Assembly (NCBI GenBank): GCA_951406725.2
Contig: OX597819.1
Location: forward strand, 69,006,001-69,070,000
Origin: Octopus vulgaris
Taxonomy: Eukaryota
DNA: 64,000 nt
Direction: 5' to 3'
The notes under the pieces were generated by a model. That model ran no database searches, had not been told where the DNA came from, and saw only the letters and a program-made list of their open reading frames with translations. Every line of letters begins with the position of its first letter. Positions within the stretch are counted from its first letter, which is position 1. Of this stretch, positions 4,350 through 63,051 are shown piece by piece. Position numbers and translations under genes: made by a program.

Positions 4350-4712
<363 letters not shown>

Positions 4713-5990: not shown

Positions 5991-6379
5991 GTAAAATTTT
6001 TAGGAATTAATGATAGTACTGCAGCCGTTCTGGAGCACCGCCTTAATGTATTTTCTATTAGTTTTTGTAGTTGCTTCTTGACTGGAAGGTGGTCTGTGAT
6101 TGAGTTTTCTAGCAGCTGTTCGCCTCTGAATGGACCATCCTTGAATGATTGACTTCTAAGGTATCGTTAAGAGTTCATCTAATGAGTTTTTGGAGGGGTT
6201 TTTTTACTGTTTCAGTAGAAGTCGCTTTTATACTTCTTTTAGATAGGTAGTTGAGATTGTTACAATAGAGTATTTTAGCCCATGATTTCGAACGTTGTAT
6301 ATTTCCAAGCTTAGAGTATATAAATGTTCGTGCATTAAAACTCTCTGCAGTGCCGAAGTTTGGAACATTTCCCTCCACA

Positions 6380-6667
6380 GTTCTATATTTAAGAGATGAG
6401 GAATTATATACATTACTTACATTCGATGGATATTTGTCTTCATCTTGTTTGTTGTTAACACAACGTTTCAGCTAATATACCCACCAGTCTTCTTCAGGTG
6501 TCTTGGGGAAATTTCGAACCTGTGTTCTAATTCCTAAGTTATTTTCGATGTTATTTTTGTTGTTGTTGTTATTGTTGCTGTTGTTAGTGTTCAGGTCACT
6601 GCTTGGAATCGAACTTGGAATCTTGGGGTTAGTAGCCCGCGCTCTTAACCACTACGCCATATGTCCC
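6380..6667 (-). mobile_element. tRNA-derived SINE containing a hammerhead motif
   Basis: Head GGCGTAGTGGTTAAGAGCGCGGGCTACTAACCCCAAGATTCCAAGTTCGATTCC (A and B boxes). Hammerhead at 6458-6501. A headless second copy lies at 9315-9485. Confidence 0.8.
6458..6501 (-). ncRNA. Minimal hammerhead ribozyme
   Basis: ACAC-CUGAAGA-AGACUGG...UUAGCU-GAAA-CG-UU-GUGU; stem I ACAC/GUGU. Confidence 0.7.
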
Positions 6668-8547: not shown

Positions 8548-9528
8548 TAAGCAACATACTATATATGTATATATATATAGTATGTTGCTTAAATTTAACC
8601 AATACACAGCCTTTAGGTTTCTGCTGCTGTAAATAGCTTTAAATGAATTTGAAATAATTGTTTTCTATGACTTTTCTGACAATAAAATTTCAGCTATTTC
8701 TTTTCAAATAAATTATAATTTTGCAAGAAAGAAAAGAAAATTAAACAAAGTATTGTCATTATGTCATAAAAATATACTTGCTACTAATGATGAAAATGAT
8801 ATTTCCTCGAGGTCGTGTAGTTAATGAGAAAATATGGTATGAAATATAGAAGAGTAATTACAAAAACGGTAAACATGTTGCGGTTATGGGTGCTATTTTG
8901 TAGGTCAAACGTCTGAACTATTTTCGTTTTGGTAGTTGAAGTTCAATATGAGAGTATAGATGGTAAGTCATATATACTCATTTGTATAATAGAATTACAA
9001 CTTTAGACTTGTTATACTTCAAATAATTTAAGCATATTTATGGGCAGACCAACTGTCATAGGCAACACATTAGCTGGAAGTAATTATGGCTGTACCATAG
9101 GCAAGCATGCGTTAATTTCTGACTTTCTCTCTCGCTGTTTGTCATTTGTTTGTCTGTCTCACTATTTCTTTCTTTATATGTATATGTATATATATATATA
9201 TACACGTTCCATATATATGTGTGTGTGCGTATGTATGTGCGTGCGTGTGTGTATGTAAGTATATGAACATATATATATATATATATATATACAGAGAGAG
9301 ATAGAGACAGAGAGTTCTATATTTAAGAGATTAGGAATTATGTACATTATTTACATTTGACGGATATTTGTCCTCATCTTGTTTTTGTTACCACAACTTT
9401 CGGTTAATATACCATCCAGCATTCATCAAGTGTCTTGGGGAAATTTTGAACCTGGGTTCTCATTCCTAACGTATTTTTCGATGTTATTATTATCATTATT
9501 ATTATTATTATTTTTTTTTTTTATTATT

Positions 9529-11294: not shown

Positions 11295-11472
11295 CGCTGA
11301 ACTCTATACGATTTTTTCTTTCTCTCTGTTTATATTCTCTTAGTTTTTTTCTGTTTAAGAGCGTAGGCTCAAAACATAAAAGACCATTTCATTTTCCCTG
11401 TGCGTGTAAATATTACACTTGCTTGTTGTTCATACACCTGTCTTCGTCTTTTGTTTTTCAATAAATTTCAGC
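11295..11472 (+). mobile_element. Degenerate family M1 element
   Basis: ctgtttaagagcgtaggctcaaaacataaaaga ... acacctgtcttcgtcttttgttt, then (TA)n. A 3'-only piece lies at 14543-14612. Confidence 0.65.
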
Positions 11473-14471: not shown

Positions 14472-14613
14472 AATATATAATATATGTATATTTGCAATCA
14501 TATATATATATATATATATATGCTTGCAATCATGTAGATCAATATACTAATACATTTGTTTGTTTGTACACCACCTGTCTTCGTCTTTTGTTTACTTTCG
14601 TAAACTTTCCATT

Positions 14614-20176: not shown

Positions 20177-20568
20177 ACAGGAAAAAAGAGGTGCGTATGC
20201 AAAGGACAATTGAAGGAACAGAGAGCCGGAGTGAAATACTGCGTTTGTATGTCTTGTGAGAAATCGAAATTGTTAAAGTAGAAGCAGATAAAGTTGCGAT
20301 TTACAACATTAACAAGCCAAAGCAACGGTTTGTCATCTCCTTAAAGGATTCCAAGCAAACGACGTTTGTTATAAAACGAAGCAGGTTAGCAACTAATGAA
20401 ATTAGAAGGTTTCCATGAGAATTAGGATTCCATTGTCGTAATGGTAAGGGAAGTATACGAGTGATTCTTCGTTCGTCACCATACTACAAGACAAAAACAT
20501 GTGCACACGTGTGTCTGCATACATCCATACATATTTACATACACACACACACAGCCATGTATATATAC

Positions 20569-20599
<31 letters not shown>

Positions 20600-20601
20600 A
20601 A

Positions 20602-20633
<32 letters not shown>

Positions 20634-20667
20634 CTTTATTTAAAAGCAGCAGAAATATAACAAAGGC

Positions 20668-20703
20668 TGTTACTCAGAGTTTCACGTTCCCGTTCGTCGG
20701 ACA
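20668..20703 (-). ncRNA. Minimal hammerhead ribozyme (CCGACGA core)
   Basis: UGU-CCGACGA-ACG(GGAA)CGU-GAAA-CUC(U)GAG-UA-ACA, in a short element abutting (TA)n at ~20633. Confidence 0.7.
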
Positions 20704-20829
20704 ATTTTGTAAAAATATTTTGTTAAATATACAAATATTCAATAATTATAACCATAATTGCTTCGCCACTCACCGAATTTAGAAATAGGTGTTAACTGCC
20801 TTTTACTGTCAAACTTTACATACAAACTT

Positions 20830-21479: not shown

Positions 21480-22295
21480 CAGAACTTTGAAATCTATTGG
21501 CTAGCGATCTCCACAACAGATAATGAACAACGTGTCCCCACTATGCAAACTCTATGAGACAAAGAAACATGTACAGAACTTTATGCACCGTATGCAGTTG
21601 TCTGGATATGATCAGAAAGATAGGGTTTGAGTTTACAAGGGAGATAAAAAGAAGTTAGATAGCATTATGTATAATGAAACCAGTAGTGCCTACCCTAGAT
21701 ATAGAAGTAAGGAATGGACTAGGGTGCAAAGACTTTTTCAAAGCAAACAGTGTGAATACGTGGTACAAACCCGACAAATATCAAGGAGTGATATCTGTAA
21801 AGGCCACAACCCAAGGAGAACTAGCCCTAAGATTTAGGAAAGCTCTGAAGGAGGCCAAACTCAACATTAAAACCGTTGAAATGCCAGGGAGCTCCATCAG
21901 ATCACAACTAAGCAGGTCGTACCCATTTGTATATACCACATACACCAATGATAACTGCATAGTATGTAAGATTAAGCCTGGCATCAACTGTAGAACTAGA
22001 AATGTAGTTTACAGCATGAAGCGTATAGAAAATACTTGTAAAGACAAAAACATGATATCCCAGGCGAAACATCTAGAAGCATTGCTGAGAGGCTAAATGT
22101 ACGTTTGAAACAATAATATGAGAAAAACAGTCCTCCATACACTACCAGCATGCCAAAGACCAGCATGGAGGCACACCGGTTCAACTTGTCATCCACATTT
22201 TATCCAAGCACCCGAAGGACCCAACACTCAGATAAATACAGGAGTACTCCCTCATAAATGAAACTTTTCCAGTACTAAATAGGAAATATACGTAG
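21480..22295 (+). pseudogene. Degenerate 3' part of a related PLE (thumb, linker, GIY-YIG)
   Basis: FMHRMQLSGY, WYKPDKYQGVISVKATTQGELALRFRKAL, NCRTRNVVYSMK, GETSRSIAERL, DPTLR, PVLNRK align by eye with the 25153 protein. Contains stops and frameshifts. Confidence 0.88.
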
Positions 22296-22301
22296 AAGGT
22301 A

Positions 22302-23265
22302 CAGTGCCTTGCAAAAGTCTACACCCCGCCTTGGAAACTGGATGTATTTTGTTTATTTTGATAGGAACAATTAATATTTTAAACTCCAATAATTTGCTTT
22401 AATAAGCAGATCTATCACGCTTTTATTTAATACACAAAATACATTTGAAATCCTTAAAACTGATTCTTAAACAAAGATAATTTTGAAAAATGTCTACATA
22501 CACTTTGGAATGTCTTCAGCTATTACTTTGTGGATGATTCTGCTGAGTCAATTACAGCCTGCAGACATCTCGGGTAGCCTTCCAGGAGCTTGCTGCAGTG
22601 GTCTACTAACAGTTTTCGCCATTCTTCATGGCAGAACTTCTTGAGCTGTGCTGGATGGAGAACCTCGGTGCACAGCCAGCTTTAGATCTCGCCATAGATT
22701 TTCTATAGGATTGAGGTCTGTAGACTGGCTGGGCCACTCCAAAACTGTGATTTTTTTGCTAGCAAACAAGCTTCAGTGCTTTTTGACACATGCTTGGGGT
22801 CGTTATCTTGTTGAAACTTGAACTTGCGATCCAAGCGCAGAGCTCTAGCAGACTTCAGCAGGTTTGCCTCCAATATTTCTTGGAATTTGACACTGTCCTT
22901 CGTACCTTAGATGGTTACCATCTCTCCGGGCCCTACAAAAACAGCCCCAAAGCATGGTCGAGCCACCGCCGTGCTTAACAGTGGAGACGCTGTAACGAGG
23001 ATGGTGAGCAGTGCATTTTTCCTCGAAACGTAGCGTTTCGTATTTTTTTCAAATAACTTGACTTTGGTCACATCTGACCACTAAACGTTTCGCCACATGA
23101 TCATGGAATCATTAATGTGACTTTTGGCAAAGTTTAGCCTAGCTTGCTTGTGTATAGGCTTCAGAAGGGGCGTTTTCCTAGCTACTTTCCTTTGCAGACC
23201 AGACCGGTGCAATAGTGTGGAAATTGTAGATGCATGGACATCTGTCAGTTTCCGTCTAACAAATC
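22302..23265 (-). mobile_element. Tc1-family transposon relic (DD34E transposase pseudogene, one TIR)
   Basis: TA followed by CAGTGCCTTGCAAAAGT terminus at 22300. Minus-strand translation gives WSDVTKVKLF, QQDNDPKH and [16 protein letters not shown]. Confidence 0.9.
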
Positions 23266-23289
23266 ACAAGGGTTTATATATACATATAT

Positions 23290-23455
23290 CTGTCTTCCCT
23301 TCTCTGGATCTTTCCTTCTCCTATGTTTCCGACGAAGAGCTCCGCTCGAAACGTTAAACCCTCCTTCTTTCCTTCTTTCCTGAGCGTCCAATAATACTAT
23401 ATTTGTTCCACGTCCTCGCTTTGTTTTTTTTTGTGCTTTCTTGTTTGGATTAACT
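23290..23455 (+). mobile_element. Hammerhead-bearing element (family M2; hammerhead 23325-23359)
   Basis: GUUU-CCGACGA-A-GAGC(UCC)GCUC-GAAA-CG-UU-AAAC. Same 3' end (gtttggattaac-TATATA) as 52243. Confidence 0.78.
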
Positions 23456-24572: not shown

Positions 24573-25115
24573 GTTTAAATATTTGTTGCGCAAGATTTTT
24601 TATGTGAAGTCGTGTGTTGAAACAGATATTGTTATATTTCGGAATGGTCATATTGCCAGTTTAGCCAATAAAAACACACGCACTATATATTTGGTGTTAT
24701 TTTGCTTCAGTGATATTTATTTTTTACATTAATCTTAATCTTATTTCGGCCAAAGTTCTTTCGTCACACTCCTGTGACCGCATCAGTGGTCCTTTGTTTT
24801 CTTCTCACTTACTTGTGTCTCTCCTTACTAACCGTCAGCCATTTTGTATTTCTATTGTATGTCTTCATTTGCGCATGCTTATATCTCTATGTGCGTCTAT
24901 GTTTATTTAGTGTGTGTGGGGGGGATGTCTGTAATATTTGTATCTTCTGGTTATATACATTCTTGTAATTTGTATTTTGTTTTTGTTGTTGTTGCTTTTG
25001 TTCTAATTTTGTTCATGTGTTTACATCCACCCATTATTATCATTACATATGCTTGTATGTATGTATAACAACAATATTAGTAATAATAATAATAAATATA
25101 ATCGAGAAAAAAAAA
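24572..25115 (-). repeat. Inverted 5' pseudo-LTR of the PLE, with an extra ~54-bp tail
   Basis: 24626-25115 is the reverse complement of 27319-27806. The only difference I see is one GT unit near 24911. 24572-24625 is a tail missing from the right copy. Confidence 0.92.
24748..24791 (-). ncRNA. Minimal hammerhead ribozyme (copy in inverted pLTR)
   Basis: Exact reverse complement of 27641-27684. Confidence 0.65.
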
Positions 25116-25152
25116 GGCGCATGAGGAGAGAGAAAAGGTCCTCAATGCCCAC

Positions 25153-27122
25153 ATGATGATGTGGACAATTGTTCTGGGACCTCAGAAACGTACTGCAAAG
25201 AATTTCCAAGCCTGGAACAATGATATCCCGGCACTGTATGGACTTCGCAAGGACCATAAAGGTTTTACTGACCCTATAGCAGGACCACCAACAAGACCAG
25301 TCTGTGGAGCGAATATCGCTAGCAATTACAGAATCTCCTACTTCCTCTCAATGATCATACGCCCTATAATCAGGATGTCACCTGATGTATGTGACAGCAC
25401 AGAAGATCTCCTAAGCAGGATCAGTGACTGTAACAAAACTTGTGACTTGACAGGATGTATAGTAGGTAGCATGGATGTGGTATCCCTATACCCATCGATT
25501 GACGTAGATTTTGCAGTGGAGAAGTGCGTGGAGATGATCAACGAGAGCCAGGTGGAGTTCTGTAATGTCGACACAGAAGAACTGGGCCTCCTACTTAGAC
25601 TGACATATAATAGTGAATACTTAGATAAACATAATCTTAGTAGTTTCTGCCCCAGTAGATGTTTAAGAGGTAGACCGCCTACAATTACTTCTATGGCTAG
25701 GAAGACACATATAGAAAGATGGCGCGGATGGACCAGAGCCATACGGAGCCCCGCAAATGTCCATCAGGTAAAGAAAATGATCGCACATGCACTAGGAGCT
25801 AGTATAAGAGTTACCCTAAAAGGCCACACATTTAAATTTAATAATAAAATATATGCCCAGGACGAGGGGGCAGCCATCGGTGTTAGTATCGCTGGTGATG
25901 TGGCCAACCTCTTCATGGTATGGTGGGACAGAAGGCTTAAAGAATGCCTACTGCAGAAATCCATACTCGTAAACATGTACTCTCGCTATGTTGATGATAT
26001 CAATATAGTAGTAAAGGCACCCCCACAAGAGAGTACGGTTGATATAGTAATAGAAACTAATACTATGGAGAGCATCCAGCAAATAGCTAACTCCATCCAC
26101 CAGAGTATTAAGGTCACAATAGACTACCCCACTAAACACCCCAACCATAGACTACCAGTATTAGACACTGAACTCTGGCTAGAAATTGTGAAAAATAAAA
26201 CCCAAATCCTTCATTCATACTATGCAAAACCTATGGCCTCAAAATACCTGATCCACCGGAACTCAGCCATTGCGGGCAATGCCAAATTCAATATTTTGAT
26301 GGCAGACCTCGTCAGAATAATGAGAAATGTGTCACGCATGTGCGAGCCTACAGAATTAAAGAGACACATACAGTATTTCATTCACCGCATGCAGTTCTCA
26401 GGTTACAGCCATAAAGAAAGGATCAGAGTATACAAAGGAGCCATGAAGAAATTTGATAATATATTATGTAATGATAGGAATGGGATTTGCCCACTCTATA
26501 GGAACAAGTCATGGAACACTATAGAAAGGACAAAAAAGAAAATAAGGAAGGCCAACTCTTGGTATGATAGCCATAAATACCAGAGTGTCATGTTCGTTGA
26601 CACCACCCCTGGAGGTGAACTAGCGTACCGCTTTAGAAGGACCCTAGATAAACTTAAACTAAGAATTAAGGTTGTTGAAAAGCCAGGCAACCCTATCAGA
26701 TCTATAATTGGTAGAACCTATCCTTTTAGTAGAACTCTCTGTACGGATAACTATTGCACTGTATGTAGATTTAGCCCACAAACGAACTGTAAAGCCAGAA
26801 ATGTGGTCTATAGTATAAGATGTATAGAGGGACGATGCAGTAACAAGACAGTGACATACGTAGGGAAACTGCAAGAAGCATTGGTGAGCGGGTGAATGAA
26901 CATTGGAGACAACTCAAGGAAGGTAAAAGCTCATCGATTCTGTACCAACACGCCGAACAAGAACACGGGGGATCAATCAATAACATAGAGATTAAGATAT
27001 TGTCCACACATAGAACAGATGCAACAATTAGACAAATTACAGAAGCTACACATATAATAGAAAATAAACCTAGCCTGAATAGAAAACTAGAATGGAGCAA
27101 TAGCGCACACCACAACATATGA
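25153..27122 (+). pseudogene. PLE polyprotein: reverse transcriptase, Cys-rich linker and GIY-YIG endonuclease; single frameshift at ~26865
   Basis: RT motifs RPVCGA, SMDVVSLYPSID, QDEGAAIG..IAGDVANLFM, YSRYVDD, LPVLD, YYAKPM, FSGYS. Linker [17 protein letters not shown]...TYVG continues in the other frame as [13 protein letters not shown]...LYQHAEQEH...RQITEA...LN (ORF 26892-27122). The frame stays open upstream of the ATG to the repeat junction (KAHEEREKVLNAH), so the N-terminus is truncated. Confidence 0.93.
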
Positions 27123-27318
27123 CAATAGTGGATCCTGCAAACATAATAAATACACAGGTAATTAAAGAAATAGAAATGAATATCTATGTGTATGTATATG
27201 TGTATATATATGTATATGTATATGTGTATATATGTGTGTATATATGTATATATATATATGTATATGTATGTGTATGTATATATATATATATATATGTATA
27301 TGTATATTCTTTTTTTTT

Positions 27319-27798
27319 TTTTTTTTTCTCGATTATATTTATTATTATTATTACTAATATTGTTGTTATACATACATACAAGCATATGTAATGATAATAA
27401 TGGGTGGATGTAAACACATGAACAAAATTAGAACAAAAGCAACAACAACAAAAACAAAATACAAATTACAAGAATGTATATAACCAGAAGATACAAATAT
27501 TACAGACATCCCCCCCACACACTAAATAAACATAGACGCACATAGAGATATAAGCATGCGCAAATGAAGACATACAATAGAAATACAAAATGGCTGACGG
27601 TTAGTAAGGAGAGACACAAGTAAGTGAGAAGAAAACAAAGGACCACTGATGCGGTCACAGGAGTGTGACGAAAGAACTTTGGCCGAAATAAGATTAAGAT
27701 TAATGTAAAAAATAAATATCACTGAAGCAAAATAACACCAAATATATAGTGCGTGTGTTTTTATTGGCTAAACTGGCAATATGACCATTCCGAAATAT

Positions 27799-27806
<8 letters not shown>
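27319..27806 (+). repeat. 3' pseudo-LTR of the PLE
   Basis: Downstream of the GIY-YIG stop, reverse complement of 24626-25115, ends in (TA)n. Confidence 0.92.
27641..27684 (+). ncRNA. Minimal type I hammerhead ribozyme (variant core CUGAUGC)
   Basis: GACCA-CUGAUGC-G-GUCAC(AGGAGU)GUGAC-GAAA-G-AA-C-UU-UGGCC. Stem I GACCA/UGGCC has one mismatch; stem II is 5 bp; stem III is minimal. Confidence 0.65.
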
Positions 27807-32468: not shown

Positions 32469-32478
32469 GTATTTATAC

Positions 32479-33012
<534 letters not shown>

Positions 33013-40120: not shown

Positions 40121-40438
40121 ATATACATATATACATACATACATACATACATAAAACACACTCACCGGTTCGATTTCCACTCATTTACTATCAATATCTA
40201 TAAAGCTGAAATGCGAAAAAGTTCTTTGTATCATTTTGGGATGGGAACGGATTAAGGGGCGGTAGATGGGGTTGAATTGGCGCCATAATTTACAGGGACA
40301 TGTAAAAAGGCGAGGAATATTAAAAATATCACTTCATCAGAGACGATGTGAGATGGTTAAATAGAGGGAAAGAGAGAGAGAGTATTATATATATTCGAGT
40401 ACTATTTTCCCACCTTGTTTTGCAGTTATATGCACACC

Positions 40439-43711: not shown

Positions 43712-44134
43712 ATTAAGAGATAACACCTCCATAAATTATTTCAATTAATACTGAAAGATATATAAATTTGAATATATTATTATTAACGTTGTACTAACAA
43801 TGTCTACACATTAAAACGATTTTCTTATTAATATCGTGCTAAAATTCTATACTAAATAATATATATTAAAAATACACATTAAAACTACGACGCACGTTCC
43901 GTGACTATGTATACGGATCTACCATATCAAAATCGATAATCAGAACTTAATATTTCTTTGATTGAACGATACAAATCCACTCTTCAGGTTTCAAATCATA
44001 AAATAAATTTACTACATAGATAAAAACGCTATAATTATACTATACTTTATAAATAATTTATAACATTTAACAATATTAAAAAAAGGTATGAACATGACTT
44101 GTAGATGTAGAGCTATTTTTTTTAGGCAGAATGC

Positions 44135-44280
44135 TATATATGTAGGATTCCAATACCTTATGAGTAAAATCCAGAATAAAGCATTGGAATCTTACATTGT
44201 GTATAAACTCTATATTTGGAATGACCCATTTTATATTCTGTTGGATTTTACTCATAAGGTATTGGGATCTTACATATATA
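44135..44280. repeat. Inverted repeat with ~39-bp arms
   Basis: tatatatgtaggattccaataccttatgagtaaaatcca / tggattttactcataaggtattgggatcttacatatata. Confidence 0.75.
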
Positions 44281-44407
44281 CCACTCTGCCAAGCAAATAG
44301 CACTACATCTTCAATATACCTATTAATCACGCATCTAATTCCTTTCCTCCACCTCATTATTTTGTATCCTATCTAAATTAACTATTACTTAACCATCCTC
44401 TCACACC

Positions 44408-46182: not shown

Positions 46183-47570
46183 CGGCTCAGACGCACCCAG
46201 CCCCACAGTATGTGTGAGCTCGTCCGTGCGTTGCTGTATCTTTATATGTTCGTATAGGTGGGCATGTGTATCTGAGTGAATGTAACAAATTACTTGGTTA
46301 TTGATGGACCTAAATTTCAGCTGGGGCCATTCAACATGCCAAAATTCAATCTCCACAAAATACAGAAATTATGCAACGAGATAAAAACAATTATGACCCC
46401 TACCCCTCTTTGCTGGCACATGCATCACATCAGCCAATCTCATTATATGACTGATCTTGCTCCACAATTCCTCAGGTTTACTTGACATTTCAACTGCACG
46501 CAAAAACTGAACAATACATTTGTTCTCAAGAAATCAAGAGATAACAGTTTTTTCCCATATCTTATAACCCGAAAAAGTGAGCCAACGTGCACGTCTCAGA
46601 CTGGTCGCTCTATATGCTAGAAAACGCAGCAATGGTTGCCGTAATTTCGCTCTATTTGTCTTGAGAATAGGAAGAGAGTATGAGATCATGCAATCGTAGG
46701 CACCATAAACATTATGGCTATTCATTCAAAGTTTCATTACCTCGATTCTTGTGGCACTTTGTATCCTTGGGTGAAAAACTTTATTTCACTTTGATCCAGT
46801 CCACTCAGCTATCAAAAATGAGTAGTGCCTGCATTTCAAAGAACCACGCTTGTCTCATTGTTTCTTACGCTCAATTTCCCTGAGAATTATGTCGAGGATA
46901 TGCGTCTCTGTTGTGTGTGGAGGGTACGCGTCTCAGCCATCTTCACGTTGATGTCACAAGTAAGCTATTTTTTTAAAATCGGTCAGCTAAAATCTCATCG
47001 TCGTATTTGACGGAGTGCTAGTTACCTCTAATCTAGGACCACATGATCAGGTCTGACTCGGAGCTTAACATTTGCATCTACCTGCACTTCACGAGTTAGA
47101 AATTAACGCACCTCTGCATGGTCGTCTCATCCTGCTAAATATTAGCTGATCACTCTCCTGTAGATCACAAGGAGAGGTTTTAAGCAAGGTTGGGTACATT
47201 CAGTTATGCAAGAGAAGAAAGATTATCTAAAAGAAAAATAATACGATAATGACTTTAGCGTTATTAATGATGGGTTGTGTCTCTCTAATTTAAACTTCAG
47301 CTAATGAGAAATGAAAACAACAAGAATTCACGAATGAGCTCTTAAATACGAAAAGCAATGACACAGACATACTGCTGGACGTTTTATAATGTATGTTTCA
47401 ATGCTAAGCAAATTTTTTGGATGTATAATTCTCTGTAACTACTTTTACATTTTCTGGGCGTTCAGCACCTGTGTTGTTATTAGAAACGTCTCTAGAAAAT
47501 TATCAATTTTAAATCTCACAACGTGAGATATTCAGCAACAATACTTTGTAGTAAGTATTGTTTGCCAACA

Positions 47571-47777
47571 TAACATGGCAGTCCTGGTTTAGGACGAATG
47601 TTGCTGTACTTTAGCCCCAGGAGACATCGTGTCCAGCTAGCTATATGACACGATGTGTAATCCTTATATATGTTCGAAAATATAAGGGCAAACATCGTGT
47701 CATATAGCCAGTTGGATACGATATCTTCTGGGGCGAAATTACAGCAACATAAGTCCTAAACCAGGACTGCCATGTTA
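47571..47777. mobile_element. Fold-back MITE
   Basis: TAACATGGCAGTCCTGGTTTAGGAC ... GTCCTAAACCAGGACTGCCATGTTA. Imperfect ~98-bp arms with a short spacer and TA at both ends. Confidence 0.85.
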
Positions 47778-48781
47778 TCTTTACTAGAAAGGCCTATATA
47801 TTAACATTTCTCTTATCTAATACCCACCCAAATCCTGTATCGTTGCTTTTATCTCTCTTTCCTATGATATGTATCTGAGTATTTTCTATTTCTTTTCCTC
47901 AAATCTTAGGGCGTTTAATGCCAGTTTCCCGTTTTTCATCGAGATCAGAACAAAGCCCCGAAAGTCGCTGAGTCCAAGGAGGAAGCAAATTTATTACATT
48001 GAATCTTATATTTGATTGATACTTTGTTTTATCGACCCCGAAAAGACGAATGGCAAAGTCAACCTAGGTGGAAGTTTAACTCCGAACGTAAAGAAACGGT
48101 TTAAAATGTTGCATTTCTTCCGATGTGCTAACCATTCTGCCACCTCACCGCCTTTTTATATGCGCCTGTAGCTTAAAAAATCTACATCTAACGATTTGAA
48201 AGTGGTCGCCAACAGTCCTGCATCTTTTTATTGAAGTCCTCTAGTCCTTGAGGGACATTGGAACTGTTCATACTACTCGACGTATTTAGTCTAAACGTAT
48301 GGTTTCGCAATAGCACGTCAGTTTTTGAGGACACTTTCATCGATATTCATCAGTTTTGGAAGACGTACAAATAACAAAAAGAAAAAAAACATCGTTTCTC
48401 CTTTAGCTTTTATTTCTTTTGATCGTTGGATTGCAGCCATGCAGGGACATTGTCTTCGATAGTTTAATCGAGTACATAGACAACAGTATAATCTCTTAAG
48501 TTTAGGACTTATTCTATCGTTCTCCCATACTGAACTGCCAGGTTATAGAGACGGAAACTTTGGAGAGACAAGCGCAATGACACATATATACACACACACA
48601 TATAAGTATATATAGTACATATATACATAGGTATATATATATATATATGTACGTATGTATGTGTATATATATATGTGTGTGTGTGTGTGTGTTTATATAT
48701 ATATATATGTATATATGTATATATGTACGTATGTATGTGTATATATCATATGTGAATATATATATATATATATATATATAA

Positions 48782-50402: not shown

Positions 50403-50594
50403 ATGATAGACCGTTAGCTCCTACACGCATTTTTTCTCTCCTTGTTTCTTTTCTGTGTATCTTTCTGTCGAAGAGCGTAGGCTCGAAACGTAAAAGACTT
50501 GTTCTATTTCTATTCCTGAGCGCCATACTAATACATTCGTTTGTTTGTACTCCACCTGCCTTCGTCTTTTGTTTATTTTCGTAAACCTTCCCGT

Positions 50595-51934: not shown

Positions 51935-52243
<309 letters not shown>

Positions 52244-62324: not shown

Positions 62325-62792
62325 GTGGAGGCACAATGGCCCAGTGGTTAGGGCAGCGGACTCGCGGTCGTGGGATCGCGGTTCCGATTCCCAGACCGAG
62401 CGTTGTGAGTGTTTATTGAGCGAAAACACCTAGAGTTCCACGAGGCCCCGCAAGGGATGGTGGCAATCCCTGCTGTACTCTTTCGCCACAACTTTCTCTC
62501 AGTCTTTCTTCCTGTTTCTGTTGTACCTGTATTTCAAAGGGCCAGCCTTGTCACACTCTGTGTCACGCTGAATGTCCTCGAGTACTACGTTAAGGGTACA
62601 CGTGTCTGTGGAGCGCTCAGCCACTTGCACGTTAATAAATGAGCTGCGACGTCACTGGTGCGAAGCTGCATCGGCCTTTCCCTTGGATAACATCGGTGGC
62701 GTGGAGAGGGGAGGCTGGTATGCGTGGGCGACTGCTGGTCTTCCATAAACAATCTTGCCCAGACTTGTACCTCGGAGGGTAACTTTCTAGGT
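62325..62792 (+). mobile_element. Chimeric SINE (family D 5' part joined to family A 3' part)
   Basis: 62325-62635 matches 61046-61356; 62636-62792 matches 44764-44923. Confidence 0.8.
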
Positions 62793-62814
62793 CACAAATA
62801 TATATATATATATA

Positions 62815-62958
62815 CTTTATTTAAAGCAGCAGAAAATTCAACAAAATCTGTTACAGATTTTGTTGAATTTTCTGCTGCTTTAAATAAAGCATATTACTCT
62901 ACCACTGGTATTTGAGTACTCTTTTTTCCACCTTGTTTCACATTTATGTGTTTACTCC

Positions 62959-62960
<2 letters not shown>
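62815..62960. mobile_element. Perfect 37-bp-arm palindrome plus 70-bp tail, within (TA)n
   Basis: 62815-62851 is the exact reverse complement of 62853-62889. Homologous to 20634-20672 and 32479-32655. Confidence 0.85.

Positions 62961-63051
<91 letters not shown>

Follow-up and report, generated by a model that had tools for sequence, protein, structure and literature searches.

A short perfect palindrome in the genome of Octopus vulgaris is centred on the position at which a hammerhead ribozyme, present in related repeats, is predicted to cut its own RNA. The coincidence of the palindrome centre with the predicted cut is true, and the question it raises is whether the insertion was templated by RNA that had already been cleaved or whether uncut RNA can give the same arrangement. 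The palindrome with its tail lies at 62815-62959 of the window analysed here, a single stretch of 64,000 nucleotides. A first-pass annotation had proposed that self-cleavage made the template's 5' end, that the reverse transcriptase (RT) then folded back or joined a second cDNA there, and that this provides a mechanism for inverted pLTRs.

A minimal head-to-head insertion in (TA)n

The two 37-bp arms are exact reverse complements on either side of the single T62852 (Table 1). They form the longest perfect non-simple palindrome of the 64-kb window, the sole other one listed having 19-bp arms, and the fold (-48.8 kcal/mol, z -15.75) was equalled by none of 200 shuffles. With its tail, the head-to-head unit is very short, 145 bp without an ORF, and the earlier description of exact arms around one T, a 70-bp tail and (TA)n on both sides is confirmed by the coordinates. 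A target-site duplication was looked for, and both flanks are (TA)n.

Table 1. Features of the palindromic insertion, its family and other hammerhead-like repeats in the window
Feature	Position	Strand	Basis or remark
(AT)8.5 target microsatellite, left flank	62798..62814	.	sequence
Short arm, the 37 nt 3' of the predicted hammerhead cut in inverted orientation	62815..62851	-	palindrome search, alignment
Junction, GT-T-AC micro-palindrome	62850..62854	.	three equivalent registers, energies
Long arm, sense, begins +1 to +3 of predicted cut	62853..62889	+	alignment, contig ends
70-nt tail, stops at the family's long 3' end	62890..62959	+	contig ends that continue into (TA)n
(TA)45 target microsatellite, right flank	62960..63049	.	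sequence
Copy of the family bearing a minimal type I hammerhead motif	20634..20709	-	motif 20704-20667; predicted to cut between 20671 and 20670
Head-to-head pair of the family, more diverged, with its join near 32555 and a short tail	32474..32657	.	both hammerhead cores damaged
Tail-only family fragment beginning at +57	40392..40437	+	profile search
Hammerhead-like repeat family	23290-23454, 52086-52243
Hammerhead-like repeat family	50408-50591, 32834-33011, 11296-11456, 14543-14610
Hammerhead-like repeat family	6379-6557, 9313-9490

Contigs of four of the 24 listed sequencing runs were aligned to 62780-62964, and 4910, 1263, 3986 and 3172 contigs matched; runs with small word shares were left out. 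More than a thousand contigs in each of the four runs means that the family is high-copy in octopus. The contigs also define where its members end. Among the rows listed, the loose ends that continue into (TA)n fall into two groups. One at 62957/62959, present in all four runs, marks a long 3' end, and one at 62894, listed in three of the four, corresponds to a short end at 62889 plus a chance overlap. The two family 3' ends coincide with the two outer ends of the 62815-62959 insertion, that of the short arm being the short 3' end also found in the copies at 20634 and 32479.

That the palindrome is an artefact of assembly or of fold-back during library preparation is very improbable. No contig crosses the centre among the pieces listed (32 of 13,359), and assemblies are described as troubled by inverted Penelope-like structures (PMC8557442). 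However, the arms end at natural 3' ends of the family, the flanks differ, the tail is asymmetric and the inversion does not extend into the flanking DNA. There are also small gains in depth inside the left arm in three of the four runs (summed gain per run 166, 0, 114 and 8.6, close to what a single copy would give), an indirect sign that a few contigs cross the centre but that they form no large class. The large flat depth over the left arm was considered as many identical fold-backs, but judging from the bin sums it more likely comes from short contigs of intact copies that fit through a 3-nt overlap. The single joint listed in the contig alignment, a 'goes back 71' joint, is present in two of the four runs; no strand-change joint is among those listed for the four runs, a search of low power because short contigs break at hairpins and 62780-62825 was skipped, so that the lack of a listed piece across the centre carries no weight. 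The palindrome is thus taken to be a real, minimal head-to-head insertion, and apparently a young one.

A SINE-like repeat at 62326-62792 ends about 40 nt before the 3' end of three other copies, at the (TA)n that precedes the palindrome; its missing piece was not seen directly after the palindromic insertion.

The family and its hammerhead motif

A profile built from the window copies finds four family loci in the window, all dispersed; it places the 20634 copy at 20630-20709. The copy at 20634 had been credited with a hammerhead, and this is borne out as a hammerhead-like motif, which comprises the core CCGACGA, a stem II of 3 bp, GAAA, a stem III that is palindromic, GUA and a stem I of 4 bp. 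The first box is a U-to-C variant of CUGANGA, and the loose-end consensus of run X2 has the canonical box; the family motif thus has the core (CUGANGA / GAAA / UH) and the stems I and II of a type I hammerhead. By standard hammerhead numbering the predicted cut lies before 20670, which aligns to 62852/62853. The motif is carried by the 20634 copy and by contig ends of all four runs and is absent from the 62815-62959 insertion.

As a monomer the motif is predicted to be unstable (+0.4 kcal/mol), with a stem III self-duplex of -7.9 kcal/mol. A short palindromic stem III and a weak monomer would fit the dimer-type minimal hammerheads that occur in metazoan Penelope-like elements (PMC4209133, PMC6765202), whose cleavage in vitro is described as poor (PMC4209133). 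Rfam gave no hit at gathering threshold in the 64-kb window, and its 16 weak matches at 20550-20800 included no hammerhead; minimal variants are usually detected by descriptor searches, according to PMC4209133. A strict hammerhead regular expression found no site in the window and a relaxed one found four. Three matches to the motif in viral contigs all lacked hammerhead context and were taken as chance, and the tail motif had no match in metagenome contigs.

The pair at 32474-32657 is joined about 39-43 nt upstream of the cut. The first-pass annotation had it folding further upstream with both ribozymes kept; the position of the join stands, but the cores are only damaged remnants (left CGGACGG/GAAAT, right GAAGG). 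Its arms are about 72% alike, so that the pair is either old or joined from two subfamilies. In all three of the family copies that keep a hammerhead, similarity ends just before stem I, 39-43 nt upstream of the cut (at 20709, 32554 and 32556), and this is possibly a natural 5' end of the uncut RNA. A doubtful fragment at 8605-8634 would begin at the equivalent of the cut, but its score is 31 where the best of 60 shuffles reached 30, and the profile search missed it; it was judged too weak for membership and was omitted from the count of ends given below. It follows an inverted repeat of 19 bp that surrounds a short run of (TA), the whole occupying 8548-8634.

In all four runs, the sequence of loose contig ends immediately before 62853 is a hammerhead core that closes with GAGTA (57, 12, 35 and 44 contigs, agreement 0.82-0.94; 24 of the 384 loose-end rows listed). 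The presence of the hammerhead directly before 62853 in each run means that the right arm begins at the predicted cut. Among the rows listed, loose ends at this position are mostly intact hammerhead and not unrelated flank. The earlier claim that the palindrome centre falls exactly at the cut therefore holds for the right arm within an ambiguity of 2 nt (+1 to +3), whereas the left arm, if every base is templated, extends 1-3 nt beyond the cut.

The junction letters and the state of the template

With the upstream bases of the intact 20634 copy, three registers from uncut sequence rebuild the junction exactly, the left arm running to -1, -2 or -3 and the right arm starting from +1, +2 or +3. 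This is possible because a five-base patch straddling the cut, GT-W-AC, composed of GUA and the beginning of stem I, pairs with itself at four of its five positions. A template cut on both sides requires one untemplated base, an A on the long-arm strand; T62852 is then either this base or the complement of hammerhead base A17. The uncut registers and a cut with one added base give the same letters, so that the letters cannot separate the two origins, and if the cDNAs were joined at this patch the coincidence with the cut is partly built in, since GUA and the start of stem I form it. By a rough estimate, a junction would fall in these three registers by chance about once in 50 if spread over 150 positions and about once in 20 if confined to micro-palindromic sites, which weighs against joining from uncut RNA.

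Other ends of hammerhead-bearing repeats provide a comparison. Among 16 inner ends of hammerhead-family fragments, taken from one window and five families and including several lower bounds set by alignment length, 14 are not at a cut, and the two within 3 nt of a cut are both from the 62815 insertion. The remainder are found from -39 to -96, these being lower bounds, at +33 and +57, and at about -360 and -2600 in a Neptune-type element whose hammerhead is a candidate only. Of the other two inverted junctions in the window, one is about 40 nt and the other at least about 360 nt upstream of its (candidate) cut. With these two so far from cuts, and with inverted pLTRs described also in Naiads without canonical hammerheads (PMC8557442), cleavage is not supported as a general mechanism for inverted pLTRs. 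At the locus itself a template 5' end made by self-cleavage is possible but is not established, as three uncut registers yield the observed letters exactly. A single ambiguous junction, chosen for its coincidence, cannot serve as a record of RNA cleavage; no report mapping inverted junctions to hammerhead cuts was seen in searches of open-licence literature.

Origin of the palindrome

There is about an even chance that the insertion is a tiny head-to-head copy of the 3' end of a likely Penelope-like element, made when two cDNAs were joined at the self-complementary patch over the predicted cut, with no need for self-cleavage. The element's enzyme would nick both strands of the (TA)n target, and reverse transcription would start on opposite strands, at the short 3' start point on one and at the long on the other. 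Both cDNAs would stop near the ribozyme core, perhaps stalled by ribozyme structure, after which their GTTAC ends could anneal (4/5 pairs) and each be extended on the other. In its support, no untemplated base is needed in any of the three registers, loose ends at 62853 among the rows listed mostly continue into intact hammerhead, and 14 of the 16 inner ends are away from a cut. Such a two-cDNA origin resembles the twin priming of L1. Simple snap-back priming is disfavoured: the fold-back primer would be one base pair closing a 3-nt loop (+2.7 kcal/mol), and the short arm stops at one of the family's natural 3' start points. Nothing would lead a copied-back strand to end at a family 3' end, and with snap-back energetically unfavourable, two separately primed cDNAs are more likely than a fold-back. 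Of the two routes offered by the first-pass annotation it is thus the joining of a second cDNA that fits better.

Joining from uncut RNA is not free of difficulty. At -0.7 kcal/mol the five-base duplex at the junction is very weak, and the palindrome of stem III, located 5-6 nt upstream and stronger with its 4+4 pairs, was not used; this counts against it. The same disuse is to be expected if stem III was missing from the template, that is, if the RNA had already been cut by its hammerhead. The cDNA of the long arm would then have run off the 5' end, gained an untemplated A and joined, or jumped to, a second cDNA ending at or just past that point. The extra A on the long-arm strand is the base expected of run-off addition, and this too weighs against joining from uncut RNA. 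We regard the cut template as a serious possibility, albeit one with somewhat less than an even chance. It accounts for a right arm that begins +1 to +3 of the predicted cut, one added base suffices, the self-pairing of stem III suits a dimer-active ribozyme, and the doubtful 8605-8634 fragment also begins at the cut equivalent. There is a precedent in R2, whose 5' junctions are described as following ribozyme cut sites and carrying untemplated bases (PMC3774820, PMC11331408). A rough Bayes grid with assumed inputs gives cleavage 0.18-0.53 at priors of 3-5%. However, there is one event only, picked for coinciding, its centre base is identical to the templated one, and none of the 14 other ends is at a cut. 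Moreover, cleavage by the family motif is a prediction, metazoan minimal hammerheads are described as poor cutters in vitro (PMC4209133), and uncut RNA is reported as the main substrate of the Anolis Poseidon protein PAc (PMC11167929).

A third origin, the later loss of the middle of a longer head-to-head insertion with two hammerheads, by hairpin or cruciform repair through the same micro-palindrome, would use the same three registers, and a longer form does exist in the window (32474-32657). It is improbable: arms identical at 37 of 37 positions leave little time for a second event, the longer homology in stem III would be expected to be favoured, and no replaced or deleted-middle joint is among the joints listed for the four runs, where power is low.

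Other elements in the window

An apparently young Neptune-type Penelope insertion at 24583-27803 contains a 5'-truncated RT ORF (25102-26895, plus strand), the protein of which is 99% identical to an Octopus vulgaris protein in NCBI. It carries an inverted copy of 490 bp of its 3' end (24626-25115, one 2-nt indel) with a 43-nt tail; the junction falls within a run of A, and a candidate variant hammerhead lies near 27646. An A/T microhomology of 9 bp considered for this junction was dropped, as only about 1 nt is suggested. The terminal repeats of this ORF differ from those of the palindrome family, whose profile does not match it in the window search, and no reverse-transcriptase gene, such as the telomerase-like RT plus GIY-YIG ORF of Penelope-like elements, was linked to the family in the window, a point against the favoured account. 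A second, decayed Penelope-like ORF fragment resembles the first (21561-22113 and 26358-26912), and inside it a minus-strand segment at 22270-23270 resembles, by eye, a decayed Tc1/mariner transposase.

Three more families of short hammerhead-like repeats, mostly 160-185 bp, lie beside microsatellites (Table 1). The shared stretch in each begins at a similar offset upstream of the cut (-66, about -85 and -96), and these offsets may correspond to fixed 5' ends of the RNA or simply to the limits of alignment. Three other palindromic elements with arms of 60-100 bp (4391-4541, 44099-44314 and 47567-47781) are not of the family described here; in the first, nearly perfect arms are separated by a short spacer, and a (TA)n run lies to one side.

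Discussion

The published layout of Penelope-like elements comprises an inverted 5'-truncated copy, an optional tail and a microsatellite target, and is described also for Naiads without canonical hammerheads (PMC8557442). Palindromes at inverted junctions have been described already and were read as self-priming (PMC3846280). The octopus insertion combines an inverted 5'-truncated copy, a tail at one end, a hammerhead in the repeat (in sister copies) and a microsatellite target. It thus has the published layout and is likely to be an ordinary dead end. The inverted 5'-truncated copy with a palindrome at the junction, the optional one-end tail, the AT-rich or microsatellite target and the hammerhead in the repeat are shared with the endonuclease-positive Penelope/Poseidon and Neptune units, as described in PMC8557442 and PMC3846280. 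In contrast to published units, however, it is 145 bp long, lacks an ORF and has a tail of 70 nt where 30-40 nt is given, and its junction removes the hammerhead wholly, whereas the usual dual-hammerhead cases of PMC4209133 keep one per strand, 100-700 bp apart.

The closest biochemical parallel is PAc, which is predicted to be a dimer and is reported to nick and extend both strands, with starts at two sites that define the tail (PMC11167929); these two start sites match the two 3' ends of the palindrome family. In the published account, hammerhead mutations left insertion by PAc unchanged and uncut RNA was its main substrate in vitro, so that cleavage is dispensable there, and none of the RNA-seq reads is reported to begin or end at the hammerhead cut (PMC11167929). 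R2 is like the present case as a precedent for a genomic record of ribozyme cleavage, with untemplated bases at run-off ends. It is unlike it in that an HDV-like ribozyme sets the full-length 5' end in many copies (PMC3774820), whereas here there is one copy, another ribozyme and another class of element; snap-back and extra-template junctions are reported at low frequency for R2 (PMC11331408). The non-LTR retrozymes are likewise small non-coding units with type I hammerheads and are related to the pLTRs of Penelope-like elements, but they are described as head-to-tail tandem units each with a hammerhead (bioRxiv 10.64898/2026.07.22.740005). The insertion here is a dispersed head-to-head fragment without one, and none of the four family loci in the window is in tandem.

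The hammerheads of Penelope-like elements are described as cutting poorly in vitro and as dispensable in a purified Anolis system (PMC4209133, PMC11167929). Only tentatively, and with more doubt than confidence, can it be suggested that hammerhead-cut RNA templates the Penelope RT in the octopus germ line, and that palindromic insertions centred on the cut could be counted as a record of in vivo cutting during retrotransposition. Enzyme stalling or microhomology at an uncut ribozyme could mimic a peak at the cut, so that the bases at the centre matter as well as its position. Although the 62815-62959 locus alone does not do so, a class of insertions beginning at the cut, if true, would demonstrate reverse transcription of cut RNA in vivo, and the high copy number of the family, with over a thousand contigs in each of four runs, makes a family-wide count worthwhile.
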